Below, one piece after another: positions 1,072-28,869 of a DNA stretch of 31,581 nucleotides. Source of the DNA: a virus. The notes under the pieces are model-generated. The model saw only the letters and a list, made by a program, of their open reading frames with translations, was not told the DNA's origin and searched no databases. A program made the translations under genes and the position numbers. The stretch is taken from UHGV virus genome UHGV-1546770; one strand, given 5' to 3'. Position 1 is the first letter of the stretch. Every line of letters begins with the position of its first letter.

Positions 1072-1145
1072 TGAAAACGATAAGACTTGAACCAATGTCT
1101 TCCTCGTTCGTAGCGAGGCACTCTATACAACTGAGTGACGCTTGC
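1072..1145 (-). tRNA. tRNA-Arg (anticodon ACG), partly degenerate
   Basis: Anticodon arm CCTCG-CTACGAA-CGAGG matches the canonical Arg-ACG loop; D-arm ACTC-AGTTGTATA-GAGT; T-arm ATTGG-TTCAAGT-CTTAT (one mismatch); acceptor GCAAGCG/CGTTTTC (one mismatch); no CCA. Confidence 0.5.
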
Positions 1146-3113: not shown

Positions 3114-3142
3114 ATTATATCACAATAATTTCTGTTTGTCAA
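3114..3142 (-). promoter_or_regulatory. sigma70-type promoter, exact consensus with TGn extended -10
   Basis: Minus strand TTGACA aacagaaattattgtga TATAAT; -35 overlaps the TGA stop of the 3139-3669 gene. Confidence 0.6.
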
Positions 3143-3669
3143 GTGGCACTTTTTAAATATGCCCTACTATTCGCAAGTAATCCAAGTAATTTTACGGCTG
3201 TATTACAAATACAATCTCCATCTTGCCACCACATACACTTCTCCTCTGAACACATCAACGTTTTTGACGACGTTGCAGTATCAGAAAGACAATAGCATAG
3301 TGGACAGTATTTTTTATCTTCCATGTCCGTCACCTCACATAAAAAATCAAAACTATCCATGAACTCATTATATTGTTCTACACAGCGCTCAAGACATGGA
3401 AAGTTATTAACTTCTTTCTTATATTGTTTTCCATAAAACTGCATATATGGCTGTCCAAACTCTTCATCAAGCACTAGCACATTATCAAAGTCATTCCAGT
3501 CAGAGATATCGTTTTTAAAGCAAATACTTACACTCAGCGCATGGTCAATACTCTTTGTTACATACCACGCCGCATCATGATTAATCCAGCTTCCGCCTTC
3601 TCTAAAATGTGCTTCAATAAGCTGCTCTTTAGTTGGCACATACTTAAGTTTATAGCTTTTTGCTTTCAT
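3139..3669 (-). CDS. hypothetical Cys-rich protein (176 aa)
   Basis: Intact ORF; start ATG overlaps the stop of the upstream ORF; C-terminal CPLCYC and CMWWQDGDCIC motifs. Confidence 0.6.
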   Translation of the reverse strand: MKAKSYKLKYVPTKEQLIEAHFREGGSWINHDAAWYVTKSIDHALSVSICFKNDISDWNDFDNVLVLDEEFGQPYMQFYGKQYKKEVNNFPCLERCVEQYNEFMDSFDFLCEVTDMEDKKYCPLCYCLSDTATSSKTLMCSEEKCMWWQDGDCICNTAVKLLGLLANSRAYLKSAT

Positions 3670-3893
3670 TATTTCACCTCATCCATCTTCGCGCCACAGT
3701 TGTGGCAGTAATTATGCGTATATTCTTGAGGGCATCCGCAATCGTTGCACCTATACTTCCACGACAGCCATGTTGCGATTTGATTTATTGCGTTCCAATT
3801 TCGGCGGCTGTTTGAGCCAATCCTCAACACCGTGTAAACATTTATTGAAACATTTCGGTGATTCGCACTCATTGATTTCTGCACAGCACTCAC
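3669..3893 (-). CDS. hypothetical zinc-ribbon protein (start uncertain)
   Basis: C-terminal CNDCGC...CHNCG motif; stop overlaps the start of 3139-3669; no RBS seen before either candidate start; overlaps 3751-4080 in another frame. Confidence 0.3.
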   Translation of the reverse strand: MSAVQKSMSANHRNVSINVYTVLRIGSNSRRNWNAINQIATWLSWKYRCNDCGCPQEYTHNYCHNCGAKMDEVK

Positions 3894-4080
3894 AAACAGT
3901 GGTCATTGATGCAATCCATGCAGCTAATTCCTCATCGCTCATCGCCCGGATGTGGTCGGCGTTGGTTCGCTTTTTCCTCCGGTACTCGCAAAAAGAAGCT
4001 GTGCATTCTCCTCTGATAAAATAAGTGCAATTTGTTTCTGCTTCTTCTGGTGTTCCAGCACCACATGTGTACTTAATCAC
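3751..4080 (-). CDS. hypothetical Cys-rich protein (109 aa)
   Basis: GTG start preceded by AAGGAG; multiple Cys (CECCAEINECESPKC). Confidence 0.45.
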   Translation of the reverse strand: MIKYTCGAGTPEEAETNCTYFIRGECTASFCEYRRKKRTNADHIRAMSDEELAAWIASMTTVCECCAEINECESPKCFNKCLHGVEDWLKQPPKLERNKSNRNMAVVEV

Positions 4081-5167: not shown

Positions 5168-5397
5168 TCCTCCACAAAATATTGAATATACAATTGAATT
5201 ACATCACCTTCTGCCTCAATTCTCTCAGCTTCTTCAATTAATCCTTGCGCTTCCCAATATTTTTCCTGTTTAAATTTTTCTAACTGTTCACGAGTTGCTA
5301 ATTCTATTTCAGGATACTTCCTAAAGAGGTCAAGCAAATCTTCTTTTTGCCACCATGTGAGATTCGTAGATTCCATTTCTTTTCTAGTCATTACCAT
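5164..5397 (-). CDS. hypothetical protein (77 aa)
   Basis: 4-nt start/stop overlap with downstream gene; charged helical composition. Confidence 0.55.
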   Translation of the reverse strand: MVMTRKEMESTNLTWWQKEDLLDLFRKYPEIELATREQLEKFKQEKYWEAQGLIEEAERIEAEGDVIQLYIQYFVEE

Positions 5398-5687
5398 AAA
5401 TCCTCCGAATATAATTCACAGACAATCCTCTCTGCTAAATCATCGCATGCCGAACGCGCCACACTCCAATTCATTGCCTTTCTATGACAATCTTCGCAAT
5501 GATAATAAAAATTATCCGTATCGTCATATCGACAGCTATCACAATAAATATCATCGAATGCTTTATAAATAAGGTTGCTTATTGCCTCTTTATTCTTTTC
5601 AAGTTTTTTGACTGGTACTACTCTAACATATGAAGGACAACTATCGTCACAAAGAGCACAATGTCTACCATCTTCACATATCATCAT
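5391..5687 (-). CDS. hypothetical Cys-rich protein (98 aa)
   Basis: CALCDDSCP, CDSCRYDD and CEDCHRK motifs. Confidence 0.55.
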   Translation of the reverse strand: MMICEDGRHCALCDDSCPSYVRVVPVKKLEKNKEAISNLIYKAFDDIYCDSCRYDDTDNFYYHCEDCHRKAMNWSVARSACDDLAERIVCELYSEDLW

Positions 5688-8956: not shown

Positions 8957-10033
8957 TTACTGTGAAACTACTTCAAGAATCTGGTTTAGAATAGCAATAT
9001 CTGTAACCTTGGCGAACTGGTCTGGAAGTCCTGCTTCCTTTATGGCAGCACGTTTGGCTTTCTTGTCTTCAGGAGAAAGAGATGACAGAACTCCCTTAAT
9101 TTCTGCCTTAAGGTTCTTGCATTCTTCGTCTTTTCTAATTTCCACATCCAACTCGTCTGTTTCCATTAGATCCTCTTTATGTGAATTATAATAGTCTTCC
9201 TTTTCTTTTTTCTCCTGCTTTGATTTGCTCTCAATATATTCGTCTGTTGCGTCATGAGACTTAATAGAGTTCTTAATTGCATCCTTGACAGTATCAATAT
9301 AATTCTTTGCAGAAACTTCTACTCTGTCAGCAATATCTTCAAATCTACCACCTGCATCAATATATCCATTTCCACGAAAGTACATCCATCTGCTAACACC
9401 ATCTACATGCCCATCAGTAATTTCTCTTTCAATAACACCCATCATACAAATATCTGCCTTGTTAGCAAAAATCGAATCATAATCTGTTGAAAGATTAGAT
9501 GTAAGCATCTGGTATTCATCGCCATTTTTCTCTTTAATATCCTTAATCTTAGTGTGCCCAATAAACACTAGACAGTACCCACTAGATTCTAGTCTGGTAA
9601 TAACGGAATTAATTAGCTCATCCACTTTTCTACGCCCAGCTCCATAACCTCCAAAACACGCATTAAATTCATGCTTGGTGCCAGACTTCTTATAGTCAAG
9701 ACGCACAATTTCCTTTTGAGCCATAGAAATCCATTCGTCAACGGTATCAAATGCAATAATAGAAAACGAATTTTCGTCCTTATTTTCTACTAGTTCGTCA
9801 ACGACTTCCATTAGTGTAGCCCAATCTGGGCAATCAGCAACCATTAGATTGTCAATAGCAAGATAACCTCTCTCATTTCCACAGCTAATCAATAGGCCAT
9901 GACTCATGTCGCCATATAGTTCTTTAATTAAATTTGCAAACAATGTAGTTTTGCCCCATTTTTTTGGTGCTCTCCAATAGTGGCGATAGTTAGTAATATC
10001 TACTGTTACCTCATTTTTCTTCCATAAAGCCAT
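8957..10033 (-). CDS. P-loop ATPase, RecA-like (Sak4/AAA_24-like)
   Basis: Walker A APKKWGKTT, Walker B-like SIIAFDTVDEW, and LVFIGHTK motif; K/E-rich C-terminal extension. Confidence 0.5.
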   Translation of the reverse strand: MALWKKNEVTVDITNYRHYWRAPKKWGKTTLFANLIKELYGDMSHGLLISCGNERGYLAIDNLMVADCPDWATLMEVVDELVENKDENSFSIIAFDTVDEWISMAQKEIVRLDYKKSGTKHEFNACFGGYGAGRRKVDELINSVITRLESSGYCLVFIGHTKIKDIKEKNGDEYQMLTSNLSTDYDSIFANKADICMMGVIEREITDGHVDGVSRWMYFRGNGYIDAGGRFEDIADRVEVSAKNYIDTVKDAIKNSIKSHDATDEYIESKSKQEKKEKEDYYNSHKEDLMETDELDVEIRKDEECKNLKAEIKGVLSSLSPEDKKAKRAAIKEAGLPDQFAKVTDIAILNQILEVVSQ

Positions 10034-10040
10034 AATAATA

Positions 10041-11051
10041 TCAGTCTCCTTTACCTTTTAAACTATTTATATATCTATCTAACTCTTCTTGTGTGATATA
10101 TCCTTTTTCAATTGCATCTTCCGCATACAACCAATGCAATGCCTCGCCTGTTTGTGGATGTTTATACGTATAATTTTGTTTACCTCTACAGCACTTTGTA
10201 ATAGAGCTTGGATCACATCCATATAAATTTTGTACTTCTTTTGCTCCCCAAAAAATTTGATTTAATTCTATACAATATATTCTTCTACATTTCCACCAAT
10301 TACTACCTTTACGAGAATCACTCATCTTTTTCTTTGCTTCTTCTGTGTGATGTTTCCCATACATTGGATGATTGCTTGGATTTATAAATCTTTCTTTTGC
10401 TTTTTCTGATAGATTTAATTTTTGTTCATCTGACAATTTTTTACCTAAACTGGGATGTTGTTTTCCTATCCATATATGTTTGCCTTTAGTTGTTGGATTT
10501 GCCCAATATAATTTATGTTTTTCATACCATTGTTTATATGTTTCTTCATCCATGCGTTCTTTTGGAGAAACTTTAAACTGTGGATTATTCTCGCCTACTA
10601 ATCCTGCTCTTCCATACATTGGATGATTATTTGGATCTGAAAGTCTTTCTTTTGCAGCTTTTGATATCTTTTTTCTTGTTTCTTTACTTGGAGTCCATCC
10701 TTGCGTTGTTCCTCCACCATAAACAAGATTATACCAATTGTTAGATTCAACAGCATTAAAGAAAACACTATAATTATATTCCATTTCATTTAATTCTTCT
10801 GCAGAATAAGCAATATCAATTACATTTCTTACAAAATTTTCTTTTCCATATTTGTCAATTGCTTGTTTAAATGCTGCACCACTACCAAGATATTCTTGCC
10901 AATTTCCATAGAATTTTCTTTGGCCTAAATATCTTTTGCCATCAATCAAATTCGTTGTGATATAAATAAATCCATATGGATCTTTTACTTCCGTATATGT
11001 TGTATCTTGTAGCCCATCAACGGAAGAATTCATTTCTTTTAATTCTTCCAT
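10041..11051 (-). CDS. GIY-YIG homing endonuclease with NUMOD3 repeats and NUMOD1-like HTH
   Basis: N-terminal YGFIYITTNLIDGKRYLGQ (GIY-YIG), repeated NHPMYG...K..S motifs, C-terminal ELNQIFWGAKEVQNLYGCDPSSITKCCRGK helix-turn-helix. Confidence 0.7.
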   Translation of the reverse strand: MEELKEMNSSVDGLQDTTYTEVKDPYGFIYITTNLIDGKRYLGQRKFYGNWQEYLGSGAAFKQAIDKYGKENFVRNVIDIAYSAEELNEMEYNYSVFFNAVESNNWYNLVYGGGTTQGWTPSKETRKKISKAAKERLSDPNNHPMYGRAGLVGENNPQFKVSPKERMDEETYKQWYEKHKLYWANPTTKGKHIWIGKQHPSLGKKLSDEQKLNLSEKAKERFINPSNHPMYGKHHTEEAKKKMSDSRKGSNWWKCRRIYCIELNQIFWGAKEVQNLYGCDPSSITKCCRGKQNYTYKHPQTGEALHWLYAEDAIEKGYITQEELDRYINSLKGKGD

Positions 11052-11124: not shown

Positions 11125-12201
11125 TTACCATGGCTCATCTTCGTCGTCAGATTCATCGTCGCCCCAATCATCATCCACATTGGATGTTGACTCTGCCTTA
11201 CCAGTGAAATCCTGTTCTGCTTTCTTTGATGCATTTACCTTCTTAATTGCCTCATCAATTGCCTTTTCAGTATATGTTTCTTTGTCAATAGTTGATGGCT
11301 TTGCACCTGTAATAATAAGTTCTCGATGAGTCGGTGCAAAAACTCTCTTATTGTCCATATCATTAGATTCGCCCCAGCAATCATCGTCTTCCTCATCATT
11401 CACGTCTTCAACATTATTAACAACATTGATGTGTCCATGAACCTGAATGGAATTATAAGGCTTTAGCCCACTACGCATCTGCTTTGCGAGTTTTGCATCT
11501 TCAATAATAAATTCAGCAGACTCAATAGAGTTATAATTCACAATCTTTGCATCTACCACAAATCGACCAGTTGGCTTGTCGTTTTCTCTTTCCTGATCAA
11601 TACCAACAAAAACAATTGTCTGCGTAAAATCATGAGCGGGAGCATAATCCTCCGCCTCAAAGTCAACATCATTCTGACATAGAGAAATTTGTGTTGGGAC
11701 AAACTTTGTGGTACGAGAGACTTCCCCATCTTTGTTAGTATAACTGCCAAATTCTAGATTTCCTTTAACAAAAACAGAATCACCATCCTGAAGATTCTCG
11801 CTAATGTATTCACATGCGTCATACTCAGTAAGCGTCTTGTTGTCGTTTCTTACCTTTCCGTTTTCGTCCTTGATCTTCTGAAGTCCAGTAAGCACACCAA
11901 TCATACGATAGCCTTCAGGAGCCTTCTTAATTCTGTCTTTCCATGCAATTGCCTTTGTATCAGTATTGCCAGTGTCTTTATCCTTCTTACTAAAATACAC
12001 CTTGTCACGCGGCATACCATTAAGCGTTGGGAAAATTGTCTTCTTGTCATCATACTCCACGCCAAAATTAATCATTCTGAACTCTTTGCCAGTTCTTGTC
12101 TGCTTTTCTACGTAGAAACTATCCTTTTCTACTCCGCTTACAATTCCTCTAACCTGAAAAGTTCCCTTGGTTTGTGGAAGTTCAAAAAGTTTGTTTGCCA
12201 T
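11125..12201 (-). CDS. putative ssDNA-binding protein (358 aa) with acidic C-terminal tail
   Basis: C-terminus DDDWGDDESDDEDEPW (acidic tail ending in an aromatic residue, as in SSB/gp2.5-type proteins); lies in the replication module. Confidence 0.4.
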   Translation of the reverse strand: MANKLFELPQTKGTFQVRGIVSGVEKDSFYVEKQTRTGKEFRMINFGVEYDDKKTIFPTLNGMPRDKVYFSKKDKDTGNTDTKAIAWKDRIKKAPEGYRMIGVLTGLQKIKDENGKVRNDNKTLTEYDACEYISENLQDGDSVFVKGNLEFGSYTNKDGEVSRTTKFVPTQISLCQNDVDFEAEDYAPAHDFTQTIVFVGIDQERENDKPTGRFVVDAKIVNYNSIESAEFIIEDAKLAKQMRSGLKPYNSIQVHGHINVVNNVEDVNDEEDDDCWGESNDMDNKRVFAPTHRELIITGAKPSTIDKETYTEKAIDEAIKKVNASKKAEQDFTGKAESTSNVDDDWGDDESDDEDEPW

Positions 12202-12253
12202 ATTTTATTAGTCTCCTTTTCCTATAATTTTGTATTGTTTAATAAAATAAAAA

Positions 12254-12463
12254 TTAATACTTATAATATCTTTCATCCATGACCGCATTATAATATGTGT
12301 ATTTGTCTAAAATGTCTTTCCCTATGTTCAACATATAATTTTCGTGCTCACAGCATGGACATCTCGCTTGTATATATAAATACTCAATGTAATTATTTTG
12401 TTCATCAACCTGAAAAATTGTTCCACATTTCTGGCATTGAACATTGACGCTCTTTGATTTCAT
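12254..12463 (-). CDS. hypothetical zinc-ribbon protein (69 aa)
   Basis: CQKCG...CPCCEHEN motifs; downstream of two consensus promoters. Confidence 0.5.
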   Translation of the reverse strand: MKSKSVNVQCQKCGTIFQVDEQNNYIEYLYIQARCPCCEHENYMLNIGKDILDKYTYYNAVMDERYYKY

Positions 12464-12532
12464 TCATCATTCATCCCCCTTTCTCAACAATTGAAAAGAC
12501 TATAATTTTATATTACATCTCATTACGATTGC

Positions 12533-12561
12533 ATTATACCATAACAATTGCGTCTTGTCAA
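12533..12561 (-). promoter_or_regulatory. sigma70-type promoter, exact consensus TTGACA-N17-TATAAT
   Basis: Minus strand TTGACA agacgcaattgttatgg TATAAT. Confidence 0.6.
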
Positions 12562-12735
12562 GTTTTTTATCGAAGATCGAAAAATTTTGTATTTCACTTT
12601 TACTTTATATTAATTCGCTGCTGATTATTGCGCAATTTCCATTTAACTCGATATTCGCAATTCCATTGTTCTTTTATTTTTTGTACCAATCATAACGTAT
12701 TGTGATTCTTACATTATAAATTTTTCGCTTATTTT

Positions 12736-12764
12736 ATTATACAGTACAAAATTATCATTGTCAA
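12736..12764 (-). promoter_or_regulatory. sigma70-type promoter, exact consensus TTGACA-N17-TATAAT
   Basis: Minus strand TTGACA atgataattttgtactg TATAAT, immediately downstream of the recombinase stop codon. Confidence 0.6.
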
Positions 12765-12770
12765 ATCTTA

Positions 12771-13745
12771 TTAAACCATATCATCCAAAATATTCGCGGC
12801 TTGCTGCTTTTTGTCTTTAGACATATTTGCATATCTCATAGTAGTAGCAATATTTTTATGATTAAGAACTGACGCACAAAGATAAATATCTCCAGTCTTT
12901 TCGTACAAATTAGTTGCACAAGAATGTCTCAACACATGTGGTGTAACATGCTTACTTGTCACATCCTTACTATATTTTTCTAGCATCACCCTAATGCCGT
13001 CTCTTGTAATTCTCTTTTTAAAGCTAGAAATAAACAAGGCATCTGTATTCGCCATGCTAAAATATTTGTTTCTATCCTGTAGCCACAATTCTAGCTGCTT
13101 CTTTACTCTATCGCCAAATAGAATATTACATGTTTTTCCTCTTTTTTCGATTACCTTAATAGTATTATTTTCGAAATCAATATCACCAATATCAATTTGC
13201 GTGATTGCAGATACACGCAACCCAGTAGTTAGTCCAAGCATAATAATGGCTAGATCCCTATTTTTCATCTTTTTGCTTGCAAGCTTATCAACATTTTCAA
13301 GAATCATTTGCATTTCTTTTTCTGTTAAATAAGCAACATCTGGTGTATCTTGCACTTTAGGACGTTCTGTTCTCTCCATTGGATTTTCTTTAATATAATC
13401 ATTTTCTTTAAGGAACCCAAAAAACGTATTCAATGCAGACCACTTTGTCGCACGAATACTATCACTTGTATTATAATGTCCATTGATAGTTTCTTTATTC
13501 TTCAATGCGGCAAAATATTTATTAATATCCAAAGGTGTTACCTTTTTATAAAAATCATTTGAGATTCTATTTTCATTAATAAATTCTGCAAATTCCTTCA
13601 CATATGCTACATATCTCTCAACTGTTGTATAAGATTTAGTTATACACATATAATAATAAAATTCAGAAAAAATTTTAGGAAGTCCTGTTAATTTTGCCTG
13701 CATCTTATTTGTAGCAACAATTTCCTTTTCCATTCTTCCTGTCAT
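12771..13745 (-). CDS. tyrosine recombinase / integrase (XerC/XerD-like)
   Basis: Catalytic-domain motifs TGLRVSA (Arg), HVLRHSCAT (His-x-x-Arg-His) and TMRYANM (Tyr) in the expected order. Confidence 0.85.
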   Translation of the reverse strand: MTGRMEKEIVATNKMQAKLTGLPKIFSEFYYYMCITKSYTTVERYVAYVKEFAEFINENRISNDFYKKVTPLDINKYFAALKNKETINGHYNTSDSIRATKWSALNTFFGFLKENDYIKENPMERTERPKVQDTPDVAYLTEKEMQMILENVDKLASKKMKNRDLAIIMLGLTTGLRVSAITQIDIGDIDFENNTIKVIEKRGKTCNILFGDRVKKQLELWLQDRNKYFSMANTDALFISSFKKRITRDGIRVMLEKYSKDVTSKHVTPHVLRHSCATNLYEKTGDIYLCASVLNHKNIATTMRYANMSKDKKQQAANILDDMV

Positions 13746-14509: not shown

Positions 14510-14538
14510 ATTATAACGCTATAATTTTGTTTTGTCAA
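14510..14538 (-). promoter_or_regulatory. sigma70-type promoter, exact consensus TTGACA-N17-TATAAT
   Basis: Minus strand TTGACA aaacaaaattatagcgt TATAAT; -35 overlaps the TGA stop of the methyltransferase gene. Confidence 0.6.
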
Positions 14539-15059
14539 GTATTTTGTTGAGTTTTCTTTACCCTCCATACGGGCGCGGATTTAGTTCCACCAACTCGCTC
14601 AACAGAATCAAACATCGAAAGCAAAATCTCCTCGATATCTGTTCCTTTTAGATCCATCTTTCGAGGGCTTTGAGGATAATTACAAACAAATTCTCCATTA
14701 TTTTCCATTACTAGTTTAATTTGATTCAATGTTTCAAAAAGCATTTGCAGAGAACTCTGCACATTAAGCACATTAGAAGCGAATACGATATCATACTGTC
14801 TATTCAGTGCAAATTTATCGAGTAGTACATCTCCATTGCCAACCCATAGATCATATGCTACCACATCAAATCCTTTGCTTAGAAGATATTTTGTACTAGT
14901 AGCTCCCTTCCCCGCACCAAAGTCGAGAATTGTTTTACTCTTATCCACATTACTTTCCACCCAAAGAGGAACTATTGCACGAATCTTTCCATCCTTAATA
15001 GCCGAAGCGCCTGCACTCCGACTAGTTGCTTTTGCAATTTTGATCTCCTGAGCTGTCAT
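14535..15059 (-). CDS. class I SAM-dependent methyltransferase (174 aa), substrate unknown
   Basis: Motif I ILDFGAGKGATS, acidic post-I residue in VVAYDL, and IVFASNVLNV block. Confidence 0.6.
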   Translation of the reverse strand: MTAQEIKIAKATSRSAGASAIKDGKIRAIVPLWVESNVDKSKTILDFGAGKGATSTKYLLSKGFDVVAYDLWVGNGDVLLDKFALNRQYDIVFASNVLNVQSSLQMLFETLNQIKLVMENNGEFVCNYPQSPRKMDLKGTDIEEILLSMFDSVERVGGTKSAPVWRVKKTQQNT

Positions 15060-16636: not shown

Positions 16637-17266
16637 TTATTTCAATTTTTCATTCACATAAAATTCAGTACCCTTATGATAACACATCTGACATCCAAGA
16701 CAACTTTTTGCTCCACAATTCACACTTACATTATTCTCTTTAATATATTCTTTGTCATATACAGTAAAGACATGATCAACAAACCAAAATCTTTCCATAT
16801 TAAGTTTCATTACCTCATTCATCTTTGGGCTGCTAACTACCAAAGAAAGATTATCAGGTTTTGCAATTTTTCTTTCATTGAACACTCTATCACAAATTGC
16901 ATAATTCTTTGTCCAAATACCAAATGAGGTATATGGATTTCTATTACAAATGTTTACATAATTAATCAACTGTGTCTCATTTTCAATATCTCCAAACGCC
17001 TCAAATCTATAAATCAGATCATTTGTAACAGGGATTTCGTTCCCTTGCAGGATCTTGGTCTTAAGAATATGTCCATTCTCAATCAAATGCTCTTTCAGTG
17101 ACTTGCGCATCTTCATATAGGTGCTTGCATAACAATGACAGCACACTCCATCTTTATCCTTCTGTCTTGCAAGACAAAATTTATTATTTGCACAGCATGT
17201 CCCAATGCTCTTCATCCCATGTAGTTTTCCAGAATGATTTGTTTCCCAAACGATTCCGTTCATCAT
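16637..17266 (-). CDS. hypothetical Cys-rich protein (209 aa), possibly Gp37/Gp68-like
   Basis: N-terminal GTCCANNKFC...GVCCHCYA cluster and C-terminal CGAKSCLGCQMC; family assignment from memory only. Confidence 0.5.
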   Translation of the reverse strand: MMNGIVWETNHSGKLHGMKSIGTCCANNKFCLARQKDKDGVCCHCYASTYMKMRKSLKEHLIENGHILKTKILQGNEIPVTNDLIYRFEAFGDIENETQLINYVNICNRNPYTSFGIWTKNYAICDRVFNERKIAKPDNLSLVVSSPKMNEVMKLNMERFWFVDHVFTVYDKEYIKENNVSVNCGAKSCLGCQMCYHKGTEFYVNEKLK

Positions 17267-17284
17267 GATATATCCTTCCTTTCT

Positions 17285-17312
17285 ATTATATAATAATTTT
17301 ATATTCTGTTAA
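17285..17312 (-). promoter_or_regulatory. sigma70-type promoter (TTAACA-N16-TATAAT)
   Basis: Minus strand TTAACA gaatataaaattatta TATAAT directly after the terminator hairpin. Confidence 0.35.
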
Positions 17313-22784: not shown

Positions 22785-23762
22785 TTAAGCTCCAACCCCA
22801 ACCTTTGCGTTAATCAGCTTGACGAACTCGTCCATCCATGCATGACCATCCATAATCTTTCCCCACCGGTTTTCTTCATAGTTTGCAGTGTTTCTGTTCG
22901 GAGCGCTATGACCAATCATATCACTCATCGCATTCACAGCGCCCCATGCAGTTCCTTTGAACTTAGCAATATCGGGCATGAAGTAGCAGATAGAATAGTT
23001 ATCTTTTACTTTCTGAATGTTTGCTTTCTTGCGATCAGAATCATTTTCCGTTACAGGGAACATCTGGTCAAGGATTTCATTGATCTGCTCAAAGTCAAGT
23101 TTGATATTCGCAAGTCTATCTGCCTCTTCGTCAAGTGCATCCATATAAAGATTTGCCATGCCCAAACAATGTCTCGCTTCTTCAAGCTTCTCGTCAAGAT
23201 TCCCAATATGCTTTGTGCTCCAAGAACGCTGAGCAGTATTGAGTGCAAGTGAGAGAGTATTATTGCAAACGACTCGAATTGGAGTCATGCCAATCTTGAT
23301 CGCTCCAGTTCCGTCATGAGAATTAGAGAACACCATATAAGGTTCCACATCATCATCAAGCACTTTCTTAGTCGGCATCTTTGCAAGCAGCCAAACTCTT
23401 TTCCCTCCGTTGAGAGAACCTGCGGTTTCATAGCGAACAATTCCATCTTCCGTTTCACCAACAATTGCATCAGTGAAAGAAAATGCGTCTACATTCTGTA
23501 CAATTTTATATCTATTCGTTACAATGCCAAGCACAGTTTTATCATCACTTCTGATGTTTGCTTTGTAGTTCTTGATTTCCGTTCCATCATCCATAAAGAC
23601 AGGAGTCTGTTCAACAGTCCAATCAAGCCCTGCCAGTTTGAGCGCTTCTGCACTGTTGGGAGCATCCGCAAGGATTTTGCATCTATCCTGCGTCTCCATA
23701 TAATGCCAAGGTTTCTCGCGTACACTAAACATGCTGTCGTTCATTTCAATGCAATGAGCCAT
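22785..23762 (-). CDS. DUF932 / TIGR03299-like phage-plasmid protein (start trimmed from track ORF 22785-23882)
   Basis: Motif MVFSNSHDGTGAIKIGMTPIRVVCNNTL matches the family signature as recalled from memory; internal ATG at 23760-23762 preceded by AAAGGAG. Confidence 0.55.
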   Translation of the reverse strand: MAHCIEMNDSMFSVREKPWHYMETQDRCKILADAPNSAEALKLAGLDWTVEQTPVFMDDGTEIKNYKANIRSDDKTVLGIVTNRYKIVQNVDAFSFTDAIVGETEDGIVRYETAGSLNGGKRVWLLAKMPTKKVLDDDVEPYMVFSNSHDGTGAIKIGMTPIRVVCNNTLSLALNTAQRSWSTKHIGNLDEKLEEARHCLGMANLYMDALDEEADRLANIKLDFEQINEILDQMFPVTENDSDRKKANIQKVKDNYSICYFMPDIAKFKGTAWGAVNAMSDMIGHSAPNRNTANYEENRWGKIMDGHAWMDEFVKLINAKVGVGA

Positions 23763-23994
23763 AATTCTTATCTCCTTTAACAAAATACATATTGATTCTT
23801 GCTTTTCTTGCTTTTCTTTTTTTCTTTTTTGCCGCACGCTGTTTCCAAACAGGATGGTCTGGGTACATTTCAAAACAATCACATTGTTTTTGCAAGCATC
23901 TTTTTCGTTCTACTTGATTCCATGTCGCTCCCTTGTCATGAAAATGGCAGTAACCACACACATTGTCGCTTTCTGACCCATACAAGCAAAGCAT
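23746..23994 (-). CDS. hypothetical zinc-ribbon protein with basic tail (82 aa)
   Basis: AAAAGGAGG RBS; CGYCHFHD...CDCF motifs and a KKKKRKARKAR stretch; 17-nt overlap with the downstream gene. Confidence 0.5.
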   Translation of the reverse strand: MLCLYGSESDNVCGYCHFHDKGATWNQVERKRCLQKQCDCFEMYPDHPVWKQRAAKKKKRKARKARINMYFVKGDKNYGSLH

Positions 23995-26116: not shown

Positions 26117-27067
26117 TTAATAATACTTGTATGCATCTTTGTCAACATTTACGTCAGTGATATCTCCATATGTGATATCAGAATGTGCCATCAAGAATCT
26201 ACCAATTGCCTCTTCCATTGAATATGCGTCCGTGTCGTACCACTCTGTGTTTCCGTTAGTGTTAACATACTCAATCAGATAATAGCCATAATTGTATTCT
26301 GGCTCATCACGATTATTGTCTTCAAGATATCTGTCAATGTCAAACAGAGAATCATATCGCACAGGTGCTTCCACATAATCGAATTTGTCATTCTCCGTTG
26401 TGCGCTCAAGGATTTTACATGCCTCCTTAATGCTTCTTTCCATTTCAGAAAGAATGACATATTCACTTTTTGTATGTGCTTTGTAATAACCACAAGAAAG
26501 ATTCACTGCTGCACAACCAAGAGCGGGAGCGATTTCACAGATATCAGAATAAGATCCATACGCTGTTTTATAAAATTCCTTTGTAATAAAGTCCTCGAAC
26601 TCATCATTTGCACAGGAATAAAACACTGCATCATTTGCGTTGGCACGATCAAATTCAATGATGTAATTGAACTCAAGATTTCTTGCCAGCTCAGAGTCTG
26701 CAAACTTACTTGAGCCTACGCAACCAACCTCTTCGTCCTCGCAGAACAGAACAGAGCAGTTAAACTTTTCAAGAATCTTGAAAATCATATAGACACCGCA
26801 TCTATCGTCGCCTCCGATTCCGTTAGGGCTTGAAACTTTATTGTTCTTTTTACTATACATGAACATATTAGGAAGCTTTTCATGCACAGTATCAAGATGT
26901 GCAACCAGCAGCACAGGAAATTTCCCTTGTGCATATACATACCCATCTCTGTTAAGAACTGTTCCATGAGTCTTTTGCAGCTTCTGTCTAACATGATTCT
27001 TTAGACTTGCTTGAGACATCTTGCAAATTTTTTCAAACTCTTTATTCATAATTGATTTTACCTCCAT
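26117..27067 (-). CDS. putative co-catalytic zinc metallopeptidase-like protein (316 aa)
   Basis: Ordered motifs VLLVAHLDTVHE, GIGGDDRCGV and FCEDEEVGCVGS resemble the His/Asp, Asp-Asp and Glu-Glu metal-ligand blocks of M20/M28/M42-type enzymes; assignment from motif memory only. Confidence 0.45.
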   Translation of the reverse strand: MEVKSIMNKEFEKICKMSQASLKNHVRQKLQKTHGTVLNRDGYVYAQGKFPVLLVAHLDTVHEKLPNMFMYSKKNNKVSSPNGIGGDDRCGVYMIFKILEKFNCSVLFCEDEEVGCVGSSKFADSELARNLEFNYIIEFDRANANDAVFYSCANDEFEDFITKEFYKTAYGSYSDICEIAPALGCAAVNLSCGYYKAHTKSEYVILSEMERSIKEACKILERTTENDKFDYVEAPVRYDSLFDIDRYLEDNNRDEPEYNYGYYLIEYVNTNGNTEWYDTDAYSMEEAIGRFLMAHSDITYGDITDVNVDKDAYKYY

Positions 27068-28869
27068 TAAACCGCTTCATCAATGTCTGTTTCATTCTCA
27101 AGAATTTCTCTCAGGCAATCTTCGCAGTACATCTTTCCTTTGTGTTCTCTCAAATTGTTGTTTCTAAAACATTCTCCACACTCTTCACAGCAACTATAAT
27201 AATAATCACAACAATCGTCGCACACATATTCATCCTGAGATTCAATATAGTTCATACACTCTCTTGGATAATATTCTCCACATTCCGCGCAATACTCATA
27301 ATATTCGTCTCTGCAATTTTCACAGACACAAATTTCATAGCCTCTTGAATTATGAACATATGTCCCTTCGCCAACGTAATATTCATCACAGTCATTGCAA
27401 TGGAAAACACAATCTCCACAATAAGGCTCTCCGTCAATATAGATGGCATCATCTTCATCGACATATTCGCCGCATGCAGCACATTTAACTCCGTGATGAC
27501 AGCAAGAAATATTGTCGTCGCAATCATGCTCATAACCACATTCGATGCAAATTGGTGTATGTCCAACAGTAATGCAATTCTCGTTGTCGTTTCCTTTAGG
27601 ACGGCTAAGAGTGCAATTTCCAAAGTTGTCGTAATCTCTATAATGAGTACCTTCAGACTCAATATATCTGCCTGCTTCGCTAGTTCCCTTACTCACAGTC
27701 CAGAAGTTCGGGAAATCAAAAATTTCAGACATGATTTTCTGAACAATTGCTCTGAAAGCGGTGTAGCCGGTGCTGCATCCATCATTGTCTTGCGGATAAA
27801 GTCTGCCCTGAATCAGTTTGTCTTCTCCCCAGTGATACATCTGACGGTTAATCTTTGGCTCATTCCAGAAATCGTTTCCATCATAAGATGCATCCACAGT
27901 GTAAAACACCATAGAAGGAGAATCGAGCATATAACTAATAGTACCAGAAGAATACATTCCCTGATAACTATTAGGCATGCCTCTTTTGTTTTGCTTATCA
28001 ATTGTATGACAGCTCGCCCAGCTATTGCCAAAGCTCATTGTGAGATAATCAAGAGGATTCACAGAAAGAATAGTATGCCTTGTAATCTTGAGCGGATTGA
28101 GCGCGTCAGCATACTTTGCGAATTCCCTATTGTACTCAGGATGCTTGCTAATACCAATGTAAGCAAGAAGCTTATTGATAACACGACTCGTCTTCTGCCC
28201 GTCATGTGCATGAATTTCAGGACAAATTCTGTTTAGCTCATCAGCAAGTTCGCTATCAATATACTGAGAAGTATAGGCTGGAATTCTAATCAAGAAAGCA
28301 AAGATATTTGTTGGGTATTTCTGTCCATTCAGTGAAGTTTCTTTCTTCATGCTTTCGGGCATAAAATTATTTTCTTTTACATATTCGACCACATCACCAT
28401 CAATCACCCATGACTTGAATCTCTCCAATGCATTACGATCAGTTACACGTTCAAAATCATGGCTAAATACAATCATGAATTTGCCTTCCAGATAGTTCGG
28501 ATGCTTCTTAAATGCGGCAATCAGGTCTTTCTTGTTATTCGCCCATGTGTCAATGATTTTGTTCAGTGCCCTGTCCGTATATTCATAGTCATATTCATCA
28601 AGCAAGTTTTCCATCTGGTCAAGAAGAATTTCTCTTTCTTCTTCAGTGATAATATTACTTACATCCATTTTACTTTCTCCTTCCTTTTCATCAAGCAAAT
28701 CAAAGTATTGCGCATCTACCCAATAGCCTTCGCCGTTTATGTTTTTAACAAAAATGTTGTCGTCAGTATATTTACTAATCTCTACAACACGCCCTCTCCA
28801 ACCGTTTGTTGTGATGCCATAAGGAGCACCACGCTGTGCAATTACTCTATCACCAAGTTTAAATTTCAT
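27067..28869 (-). CDS. large hypothetical protein (600 aa) with C-terminal tandem zinc-ribbon array
   Basis: Longest ORF in the window; C-terminal ~150 aa contain at least 8 CxxC pairs in repeated units (CAACGEYV, CNDCDEYY, CENCRDEYY, CAECGEYY, CEECGEC); plus-strand ORF 27352-28236 is its shadow. Confidence 0.65.
   Translation of the reverse strand: MKFKLGDRVIAQRGAPYGITTNGWRGRVVEISKYTDDNIFVKNINGEGYWVDAQYFDLLDEKEGESKMDVSNIITEEEREILLDQMENLLDEYDYEYTDRALNKIIDTWANNKKDLIAAFKKHPNYLEGKFMIVFSHDFERVTDRNALERFKSWVIDGDVVEYVKENNFMPESMKKETSLNGQKYPTNIFAFLIRIPAYTSQYIDSELADELNRICPEIHAHDGQKTSRVINKLLAYIGISKHPEYNREFAKYADALNPLKITRHTILSVNPLDYLTMSFGNSWASCHTIDKQNKRGMPNSYQGMYSSGTISYMLDSPSMVFYTVDASYDGNDFWNEPKINRQMYHWGEDKLIQGRLYPQDNDGCSTGYTAFRAIVQKIMSEIFDFPNFWTVSKGTSEAGRYIESEGTHYRDYDNFGNCTLSRPKGNDNENCITVGHTPICIECGYEHDCDDNISCCHHGVKCAACGEYVDEDDAIYIDGEPYCGDCVFHCNDCDEYYVGEGTYVHNSRGYEICVCENCRDEYYEYCAECGEYYPRECMNYIESQDEYVCDDCCDYYYSCCEECGECFRNNNLREHKGKMYCEDCLREILENETDIDEAV

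Follow-up and report, generated by a model that had tools for sequence, protein, structure and literature searches.

The open reading frame at positions 16,637 to 17,266 of the window (the whole stretch of 31,581 nt that was analysed, from the virus genome UHGV-1546770) encodes a 209-aa protein that is an ordinary member of the GP88 family (PF17338). The initial annotation had proposed, from a motif alone, a possible phage protein of the Gp37/Gp68 family (DUF5131). For this gene the main result is a correction, and thousands of phage genes resemble it. The GP88 family is large, with seven conserved cysteines and a confident predicted fold without a neighbour in the PDB, and weak but concordant ties connect it to the DUF5131 and spore photoproduct lyase (SPL) corner of the radical-SAM superfamily.

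Family assignment

In a Pfam scan, the 209-aa protein matched PF17338 with 36.4 bits (E = 6.4e-9), above the gathering cut-off of 24.4, residues 20-193 being aligned with profile positions 34-207 of 230. The same family was assigned to 133 of the 146 diverse relatives (33-62% identity) on which conservation was measured. The initial annotation had made its family call dependent on a significant profile match to Gp37/Gp68. No match to PF07505 (DUF5131, Gp37/Gp68; gathering cut-off 28.9 bits) was found for this protein even at E <= 10, and the NCBIfam and PHROGs scans returned no DUF5131 match either. Since PF07505 gave no match and PF17338 scored above its gathering cut-off, the protein is not a member of DUF5131.

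The open reading frame is a genuine gene. Exactly the same protein is already present in a public collection, where its cluster at 90% identity counts 301 members, and 209 close homologues were found besides the 1434 representatives of the GP88 family (50% clustering, E <= 1e-3). The coordinates of the gene, its upstream signals and its conserved motifs are given in the table. The sigma-70-like match could possibly be the gene's own promoter. It is only a lead, because the region is AT-rich and 11 promoter-like sites were seen around it by the consensus scan, against 6.4 +/- 2.5 expected.

Membership of GP88 says nothing on mechanism, because this family has no assigned function. Literature searches on PF17338/GP88, DUF7227, PDC-M30, PDC-M41 and TcmP yielded nothing on function, and no member of GP88 or DUF5131 is characterised according to these searches and to sequence searches of the PDB. 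The best results of the latter were a DD-transpeptidase for the 209-aa protein (E = 1.1) and HdrC for the GP88 profile (E = 0.39), with none for the DUF5131 profile. The HdrC result is an insignificant likeness at the motif level, between the C-terminal cysteines of GP88 and a ferredoxin-type CxxCxxC.

Table. Features of the GP88 gene and of its upstream region, in window coordinates
Feature	Position	Strand	Basis or conservation
CDS of the 209-aa GP88-family (PF17338) protein	16637..17266	-	ATG-to-stop ORF; Pfam, homologues, AlphaFold model
Shine-Dalgarno AAGGAAGG	17274..17281	-	7 nt upstream of ATG; direct sequence reading
Sigma-70-like promoter match TTAACA-16 nt-TATAAT (11/12)	17285..17312	-	Consensus scan; 87-nt gap upstream of the gene
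GTCCANNKF, residues 22-30, upstream part of the N-terminal motif quoted in the initial annotation	17177..17203	-	T23 and N28 nearly invariant
Triad C31-x10-C42-x2-C45-Y-A, residues 31-47	17126..17176	-	C31, C42, C45 invariant, 146/146
RFEAFGD, residues 87-93, beta2 strand plus the following acidic loop	16988..17008	-	R87 invariant; E89, G92, D93 nearly invariant; strand 85-88 in the model
WTKN, residues 118-121, end of strand beta3	16904..16915	-	K120 invariant, 146/146
PDNLSLVVSS, residues 137-146, strand beta4	16829..16858	-	N139 invariant, S145 nearly invariant
C184-x4-C189-x2-C192-x2-C195-Y, residues 184-196	16679..16717	-	Y196 in 146/146; 4 conserved Cys

Conserved cysteines

Seven cysteines, arranged as 3 + 4, are conserved among the 146 relatives. 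Six of them (C31, C42, C45, C184, C189 and C195) occur in every sequence, and C192 in 145. The N-terminal spacing x10/x2 is kept in 133 relatives, a spacer of x6 occurring in none of them, and the C-terminal spacing x4/x2/x2 is kept in 130. Both cysteine motifs quoted in the initial annotation exist exactly, GTCCANNKFC...GVCCHCYA at residues 22-47 (nt 17126-17203) and CGAKSCLGCQMC(Y) at the C-terminus. The first was read there as a single cysteine cluster, which holds for C31, C42 and C45 but not for C24, C25 and C43: position 24 is a serine in 112/146 relatives, position 25 a cysteine in 61/146, and position 43 mostly a serine or an alanine. Functionally, the N-terminal unit thus comes down to a triad of cysteines, not a cluster of six. 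C24 and C25 are lineage-specific additional cysteines that do not define the family. H44 is a histidine in just 39/146 relatives.

The phage itself is rich in cysteines. With 12 cysteines in 209 aa (5.7% vs. a background of 2.8%; binomial P = 0.016), the protein is only mildly unusual for its phage, and the real signal is the conservation of these residues.

The namesake of PF17338, gp88 of Mycobacterium phage L5 (239 aa, encoded by the last gene but one at the right end of the genome), was matched over residues 47-225 by an HMM built from the 146-member family alignment (E = 1.4e-9). It possesses an equivalent C...C...C-Y-A triad, the RxxxxGD motif and a C-terminal CxxCxxC, whereas its N-terminal spacing is C-x6-C-x3-C and an arginine stands at the equivalent of K120. 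Unlike L5 gp88, the clade of gut phages carries the non-conserved cysteines C24, C25 and C43.

Predicted fold

The AlphaFold model of the 209-aa protein (pLDDT 97.3) is an alternating beta/alpha domain with the order b1(19-21)-Cys loop-a1(46-70)-b2(85-88)-a2-b3(114-119)-a3-b4(140-145)-b5(165-170)-a5-Cys cluster-b6(203-207). The triad follows the strand at 19-21, its last cysteine, C45, standing directly in front of the helix at 46-53. In this model, the predicted elements succeed one another as in the partial barrel of radical-SAM enzymes, and the third cysteine stands right before a1.

No structure of the PDB was retrieved by Foldseek at E < 0.3 with this model. The best radical-SAM matches were NifB (7jma) and viperin (6q2p and 6b4c), with E-values of 1.1-1.4 and a TM-score of about 0.3, and they stand among methyltransferases and TIM barrels. 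In BFVD, every top match was a protein annotated as "Gene product 88 domain-containing", from viruses of bacteria or archaea, with E-values from 1e-8 to 1e-3, a probability of 1.00 and TM-scores reaching 0.69. NifB, viperin and viral radical-SAM proteins are also found among the weak matches of the GP88 model, and the weak structural matches of the GP88 and DUF5131 models taken together include QueE and AslB-like proteins. The "metal-binding enzyme-like fold" of poorly understood function that had been suggested from the cysteines is a fair description of this protein.

Relationship with DUF5131

The motif that had suggested Gp37/Gp68, a CxxCYA after a first cysteine, is common to both families: it reads C-x6-C-x2-C-Y-A in DUF5131 and C-x10-C-x2-C-[YF]-[AS] in GP88. 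In DUF5131 also, this triad comes directly after the first strand. For the comparison, gp50 of Erythrobacter phage R6L was taken as the DUF5131 reference; gp37 of Burkholderia phage Bcep781, considered as another source, is an unrelated protein of 63 aa and was rejected. A DUF5131 model by AlphaFold (pLDDT 95.6) shows the same order of elements as the GP88 model. Foldseek searches with the DUF5131 model found GP88-domain viral proteins at E-values of 4.3e-4 and 5.5e-3 (range 4e-4 to 1e-2) and also retrieved viral radical-SAM proteins, with E-values near 1e-2. The reverse search, with the GP88 model, found a Gp37/Gp68-like protein in BFVD at E = 0.16.

Profile comparisons point in the same direction. 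In the alignment of GP88 with DUF5131 by hhalign, the invariant residues of each family pair colinearly (P about 0.002), with a probability of just 9-14%. The local score alone was indistinguishable from that of block-shuffled controls, whereas Sum_probs, which reflects colinearity, was 60.4 vs. 32 +/- 11 in the block shuffles, a value that no more than one of the 50 approached. The GP88 triad pairs with the C-x6-C-x2-C-Y-A of DUF5131, RFEAFGD with the invariant S-L-x-D (an acidic residue following beta2 in both families), WTKN (K120) with LLTK(124)R, which is the best-scoring stretch and places T-K at the end of beta3, and PDNLSLVVSS (N139) with the invariant VPxN(144)V, a P-x-N before beta4. 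In addition, 8 of the 146 GP88 relatives gave sub-threshold matches to PF07505 (best E = 3.3e-4), the best cross-match shown being that of relative P0183 with 20.2 bits (cut-off 28.9). The PADLOC models PDC-M30B and PDC-M41B both match 34 of 34 DUF5131 sequences with E-values down to 1e-53; one of these two models was matched by 6 and the other by 5 of the 146 GP88 relatives.

These cross-matches, the common motif and the common order of secondary structure are what speaks for a bona fide Gp37/Gp68 protein, a reading that we consider extremely improbable. Besides the absence of any PF07505 match and the GP88 nature of the top BFVD matches, the spacer between the first two cysteines is x10 and not x6, and the protein has 209 aa and one beta-alpha unit fewer, compared with 260-300 aa in DUF5131. 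The motifs S-x-E-P and G-G-E-S-G, present without exception in sets of 34 and 48 DUF5131 sequences, have no counterpart in the GP88 consensus; a low-confidence extended hhalign alignment sets them opposite unrelated GP88 residues. Conversely, the C-terminal Cx4Cx2Cx2C of GP88 is missing in DUF5131. The weak but concordant signals indicate that GP88 is a distant cousin of Gp37/Gp68 and not a member, with a remote sister relationship between the two families. The initial interpretation was partly supported, being wrong on the identity of the family and right on the shared motif. The two families also differ in their surroundings: DUF5131 sequences match two candidate-defence models, whereas GP88 is here stand-alone and viral in the collections scanned. 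In cellular genomes, DUF5131 is often paired with TcmP.

A putative compact radical-SAM-like enzyme

DUF5131 is placed by RadicalSAM.org in the radical-SAM Megacluster-5-2, with a CX6CX2C motif, beside spore photoproduct lyase, and the accepted variants of the radical-SAM motif extend from CX4 to CX11-CX2C (PMC9477430). GP88 has a three-cysteine motif in the loop between beta1 and alpha1, and its CX10CX2C lies within this range. The direct signals of spore photoproduct lyase are weaker than those of DUF5131: Pfam SPL (PF20903) was matched by 1 of the 146 relatives (E = 6.6e-3) and TIGR04070 (SPL) by one relative (E = 7.3e-5). No curated radical-SAM model of Pfam or NCBIfam matched the 209-aa protein, single relatives matching only SPL. 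In particular, PF04055 (Radical_SAM) gave no match for the 209-aa protein at E <= 10, nor for the 146 relatives at E <= 0.01.

Canonical radical-SAM enzymes (PF04055; e.g. QueE, activating enzymes, spore photoproduct lyase) share with GP88 the position of the three-cysteine motif between beta1 and alpha1, which in these enzymes lies within a partial (beta/alpha)6 barrel whose order of elements the GP88 model fits. They differ from it by their CX3CX2C spacing, vs. CX10CX2C in GP88, and by the aromatic residue that stands between the last two cysteines in the canonical CX3CXphiC, whereas it stands after them in GP88. Moreover, the SAM-binding motifs GGE and GxIxGxxE are not recognisable in GP88, RFEAFGD being, we infer, a candidate counterpart of the GGE region. 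Auxiliary cysteine clusters are common in the radical-SAM superfamily.

We give about an even chance to the GP88 protein being a putative Fe-S/SAM enzyme, i.e. a stand-alone and compact alternating beta/alpha domain of about 200 aa, divergently related to radical-SAM enzymes, with DUF5131 as its nearest relative. By analogy with the variant radical-SAM motifs, we propose that C31, C42 and C45 are the ligands of a site-differentiated [4Fe-4S] cluster. Such a cluster, bound after beta1 and at the start of alpha1, would keep one open iron that chelates S-adenosylmethionine. The reductive cleavage of SAM would then yield a 5'-deoxyadenosyl radical, which would attack a substrate held by the invariant or nearly invariant polar residues at or near strand ends (R87, E89, D93, K120, N139, S145, D164 and E206). 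We also propose that C184, C189, C192 and C195 form an auxiliary four-cysteine metal site ([4Fe-4S] or Zn); in this mechanism, it would carry a second cluster. A nucleic acid or a nucleotide would be our guess for the substrate, because the nearest recognisable relatives act on DNA or associate with it.

Structural Zn can be bound just as well by such sets of cysteines. An alpha/beta (TIM-like) enzyme without radical chemistry is a possible but rather unlikely alternative: the cysteines would hold structural Zn or, as Fe-S DNA glycosylases and primases do, a cluster without redox activity, and catalysis, for instance hydrolysis or group transfer acting on DNA, RNA or nucleotides, would fall to the invariant residues K, R, D, E and N. 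This would agree with the lack of significant matches to radical-SAM models and solved structures, and with the presence of the family in phages of aerobes (Pelagibacter, Roseobacter, Mycobacterium). K14 and D164, together with the residues of the table R87, E89, D93, K120, N139 and S145 and with E206, lie at or near strand ends, as in TIM-barrel hydrolases, and the weak Foldseek matches include GDPD, aldo-keto reductases and dehydroquinase. However, a strict triad near which no fourth ligand is conserved, neither H44 nor C25 being so, is found more typically with a site-differentiated cluster than with structural Zn. It also sits where radical-SAM enzymes have theirs, between beta1 and alpha1, and every weak signal has DUF5131 and SPL as the nearest relatives.

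If the radical-SAM reading was confirmed, GP88 would provide a minimal radical-SAM scaffold and a new early function of phages. It could also hint at the role of DUF5131 proteins in the candidate defence systems PDC-M30B and PDC-M41B of PADLOC. A broader proposal, which we put forward only tentatively, is that GP88 might be a so far unrecognised branch of the radical-SAM enzymes, almost only viral here, combining CX10CX2C with an auxiliary Cx4Cx2Cx2C on a minimal barrel of about 200 aa that has no close solved structure. Early in infection, its members might act by themselves, through a new radical chemistry, on nucleic acid of the host or the phage, for modification, repair or counter-defence.

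Genomic context and distribution

The gene lies within a long co-directional block of small genes, mostly of unknown function, in a gut phage of roughly 150 kb. Replication and recombination genes lie a few kb away, encoding a DnaB-like helicase and a Sak4-like annealing protein. This setting suggests that the GP88 protein would be made early in infection, where it may act alone.

The same replication module might favour a role as DNA primase or as a replication factor that binds DNA through zinc fingers, and the sole PHROG match of the protein was phrog_8634 ("DNA primase"; E = 0.012, residues 18-107). This match is insignificant and was reproduced by none of the 146 relatives, which match phrog_1392 (unknown function) instead. 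As the protein has no Toprim, AEP or zf-CHC2 Pfam domain, and as its cysteine sets lie within one globular alpha/beta domain and not in an appended zinc ribbon, we regard such a role as very unlikely.

We scanned the neighbouring genes of the window with Pfam and PHROGs and compared the neighbourhoods of 85 loci from IMG/VR, GenBank phages and assemblies, with clustering of the neighbouring genes. No partner gene was conserved across these 85 loci. An integrase, an MrpR-like recombinase, a protein of 173-190 aa ("c2", unknown) and a small methyltransferase were considered as partners and rejected, since they reflect the synteny of a single lineage of large gut phages and are absent from distant loci. 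A scan of the ten longest relatives (301-393 aa) revealed no fused domain.

GP88 members were found in phages of gut bacteria, of marine alphaproteobacteria (Pelagibacter, Roseobacter) and of Mycobacterium, as well as in viruses assigned to archaea. In the collections scanned, the family is almost exclusively viral, the cellular contigs having been scanned with one narrow peptide pattern, which returned a single locus, in a CPR MAG. In the distant GP88 loci, the gene is located near the terminase or near the end of the genome.

Family assignment and conservation of the GP88 protein

The only Pfam match of the window protein is PF17338 "GP88" (E 6.4e-9, 36.4 bits; gathering cut-off 24.4). The initial annotation had proposed, from a cysteine motif, a member of the phage Gp37/Gp68 family (PF07505, DUF5131). 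By the criterion which that annotation itself set, this call is refuted by the profile search, as PF07505 was absent at E <= 10 and nothing beyond PF17338 appeared; the NCBIfam scan also gave no match. Sub-threshold PF07505 matches were found in 8 of 146 relatives, one of them pairing residues 39-152 with profile positions 16-134. We regard membership of DUF5131 proper as very improbable. In PHROGs, the only match was to a "DNA primase" family, insignificant (E 0.012) and recurring in none of the 146 relatives; that the protein is a primase or a zinc-finger protein is likewise very improbable. Among these relatives, 30 matched phrog_1392 (function not known), and the family HMM also matched the namesake, mycobacteriophage L5 gp88 (E 1.4e-9).

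The gene is real and widespread. The exact protein sequence is present in a public protein collection, where its 90%-identity cluster has 301 members. Close homologs numbered 209 in a single-sequence search and 1165 with a small profile, and an exhaustive HMM search, run over 1.84 billion representatives, returned 1434 clusters at E <= 1e-3 (562 of them at E <= 1e-30). IMG/VR holds viral genomes of ~146-158 kb with a 97-99% identical copy. Homologs annotated "hypothetical protein" include Pelagibacter phage Greip gp26, Roseobacter phage CRP-5 gp02 and a protein of a Methanomicrobiales-assigned virus. The gene is a further member of a known Pfam family lacking assigned function, and this copy is not unusual beside its many relatives.

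We aligned the protein with 145 representatives (33-62% identity). Residues K14, C31, C42, C45, R87, K120, N139, C184, C189, C195 and Y196 are invariant, and E89, F91, G92, D93, N102, N110, W118, P137, S145, N150, C192, E206 and K209 nearly so. The N-terminal pattern C-x10-C-x2-C-[YF]-[AS] occurs in 133 of the 146 sequences and the C-terminal pattern C-x4-C-x2-C-x2-C-Y in 130. Both peptides quoted in the initial annotation, GTCCANNKFC...GVCCHCYA and CGAKSCLGCQMC, were found, at residues 22-47 and 184-195, respectively; C24, C25, C43, C107 and C125 are not family features. At the sequence level, the conservation of C31/C42/C45 and of the four C-terminal cysteines defines a strictly conserved three-Cys triad and a separate four-Cys set. 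Cysteines make up 12 of the 209 residues, a modest excess over the Cys-rich window background (2.8%; P = 0.016), and the case for these sets rests on conservation, not on composition alone.

In the DNA, AAGGAAGG can be read 7 nt 5' of the ATG. The 87-nt gap 5' of the gene contains a near-consensus TTAACA-16-TATAAT match, only a lead to a promoter since the DNA is AT-rich.

Predicted structure and probable relationship to DUF5131

The AlphaFold2 model, built from the 146-sequence alignment (pLDDT 97.3, pTM 0.92), has the same alternating beta/alpha order as the radical-SAM partial barrel, and its Cys triad falls, as there, after beta1 and before alpha1. Invariant polar residues of GP88 lie in the model at strand ends or adjacent positions. 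In a Foldseek search, no PDB structure matched at E < 0.3; the weak matches mixed SAM methyltransferases, TIM barrels, NifB and viperin (TM <= 0.31). In BFVD, the named significant matches were all GP88-domain proteins of bacterial or archaeal viruses (E 1e-8 to 1e-3) and the remaining ones unnamed proteins. Next came DUF7227 at 0.015, a Gp37/Gp68-like protein at 0.16 and, at 0.5-0.8, viral radical-SAM proteins.

As DUF5131 reference we used Erythrobacter phage R6L gp50, named as Gp37Gp68 (PMC5463345), from which homologs were collected, all PF07505. Their invariant C-x6-C-x2-C-Y-A motif is the CX6CX2C of RadicalSAM.org Megacluster-5-2, which is DUF5131 and is placed beside spore photoproduct lyase (SPL); CX4 to CX11-CX2C variants are listed elsewhere in the superfamily (PMC9477430). 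PDC-M30B and PDC-M41B, PADLOC models for components of a "candidate defence system", matched 34 of 34 DUF5131 sequences (E down to 1e-53) and behave as DUF5131 models. Since all 34 match, DUF5131 occurs in candidate anti-phage systems; it is also found in phage replication/recombination modules, R6L gp50 (locus L091) adjoining exonuclease, ERF and SSB genes. Among the 146 GP88 relatives, 6 matched PDC-M30B, 5 PDC-M41B, one Pfam SPL and one TIGR04070 SPL (7.3e-5); the 8 sub-threshold PF07505 matches given above point the same way.

Comparison of the two family alignments with hhalign gave P = 0.002-0.003 and a probability of only 9-14%, centred on NPxTxFALWTK(120)N...KPxN(139)L in GP88 vs TPxLDWMLLTK(124)R...VPxN(144)V in DUF5131; on extension, the three Cys and YA of the two families come to align too, as do their D93 residues. 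The local score was not exceptional against shuffle controls. The colinear Sum_probs reached 60.4 vs 32 +/- 11, with at most 1 in 50 block shuffles near. The AlphaFold model of DUF5131 (pLDDT 95.6) shows the GP88 element order plus one extra beta-alpha unit. In its BFVD search, matches 4, 9 and 21 were GP88-domain proteins (E 4.3e-4, 5.5e-3 and 1.3e-2), and matches 8 and 19 were unnamed proteins found with the GP88 model as well; radical-SAM proteins (AslB-like, QueE, others) came at ~1e-2. None of these lines is decisive singly; taken together, they make it likely that GP88 and DUF5131 are sister families. The motif named in the initial annotation was therefore a good lead, despite the wrong family assignment.

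Genomic context

Besides a tRNA array, the window carries genes for a tail fibre, a DnaB-like helicase, a Sak4-like annealing protein, a homing endonuclease, a tyrosine integrase, a small methyltransferase and a DUF932-type protein. It is a piece of a large gut phage of the ~146-158 kb type; related contigs come from gut metagenomes.

Features of the window and of the GP88 protein model
Feature	Position	Strand	Basis and remarks
tRNA array	2-1290	minus	ARAGORN (seven calls), Rfam
"Skipping-rope" RNA motif	246-325	minus	RF02924, 77.9 bits (gathering 36.7), E 1.7e-17, full length
Additional tRNA	1072-1145		Rfam; no ARAGORN call
Small Cys-rich ORF	3139-3669	minus	6.2% Cys; no PHROG match (one scanned of the three)
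Small Cys-rich ORF	3751-4080	minus	9.2% Cys
Small Cys-rich ORF	5391-5687	minus	10.2% Cys
Sak4-like annealing protein gene	8957-10033
Homing endonuclease gene	10041-11051	minus	phrog_314, E 1.9e-38
phrog_2367 gene	11125-12201
Interval before integrase gene	12202-12770		~570 bp
Tyrosine integrase gene	12771-13745
Methyltransferase gene	14535-15059	minus	174 aa, SAM-dependent; Methyltransf_23, E 1.7e-7
GP88 gene	16637-17266	minus	ORF call; 209 aa, start ATG
phrog_1221 protein gene	22785-23882	minus	E 5.5e-81
Peptidase-like gene	26117-27067
Cys-rich ORF	27067-28869	minus	600 aa, 31 Cys; no PHROG match at E <= 1e-5
GP88 model, N-terminal half	residues 19-21 (strand), Cys loop, 46-70 (long helix), 85-88 (strand), 97-109 (helix)		AlphaFold2
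GP88 model, C-terminal half	residues 114-119 (strand), 122-131 (helix), 140-145 (strand), 165-170 (strand), 172-178 (helix), Cys segment, 203-207 (strand)		AlphaFold2

We compared 85 loci, whose called ORFs were clustered by all-against-all BLASTP. In large gut phages, the GP88 gene lies within an extended stretch of small genes that all point the same way, mostly of function not known, upstream of the integrase and, in relatives, also of an MrpR-like recombinase. A clade at 45-47% identity has a 173-190-aa protein of no known function directly after it. At more distant loci, from various other samples, the gene is near the terminase or a genome end. It is gp02 in CRP-5 and the second gene from the right end in L5. 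No neighbour is common to all GP88 lineages in these loci, and no informative domain fusions were found in the ten longest relatives (301-393 aa). It is probable that the protein acts on its own and that its expression is early.

Only the closest relatives (11 loci; cluster c33) also have the methyltransferase gene in its place ~1.6 kb downstream, which we judge to be synteny rather than functional pairing. Upstream, the phrog_1221 gene (cluster c19) is conserved in the large gut-phage lineage; its counterpart in related phages, of similar size and in the same gene order, is PF06067 DUF932.

Proposed activity

The best-supported model, to which we give roughly an even chance, is a compact radical-SAM-like enzyme. 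The three Cys of the triad would be ligands of a site-differentiated [4Fe-4S] cluster, itself binding SAM; the four C-terminal cysteines would hold an auxiliary cluster, and SAM and substrate would be bound by the invariant residues at the strand ends. The main rival keeps the same fold, with both Cys sets binding structural Zn and non-radical chemistry; we consider it possible, on the unlikely side. The kinship with SPL and DUF5131 and the replication/recombination genes alongside suggest, by inference only, a nucleic acid or nucleotide as substrate. GP88 is plausibly a minimal branch of radical SAM, new and marked by a CX10CX2C motif. The family deserves biochemical attention: it is large, conserved across bacterial and archaeal viruses and predicted with a confident fold, and none of its relatives has a solved structure.

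Other features of the window

In the closest relatives (loci L014-L016; GP88 97-98% identical), an MrpR-like recombinase gene (cluster c3; PF22822/PF22823) comes after the tyrosine integrase gene. The window has none beside its integrase gene; the interval there contains only a small ORF with Cys and TTGACA/TATAAT boxes resembling a promoter. Compared with the sister phages, this looks like sequence that was deleted or replaced. The homing endonuclease gene is inserted in the replication/recombination module, between the Sak4-like and phrog_2367 genes.

ARAGORN calls in the tRNA array are Thr-TGT, Ile-TAT, Met-CAT, Leu-CAA, Leu-TAA and two for Tyr, of which one has an odd anticodon, ATA; three of the seven are confirmed by Rfam. 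The "skipping-rope" motif, classed in Rfam as sRNA only, sits between tRNA genes of this array. In the 600-aa ORF, followed by the peptidase-like gene, repeated CxxC pairs fill the C-terminal third and, from their pattern, look like tandem zinc ribbons.
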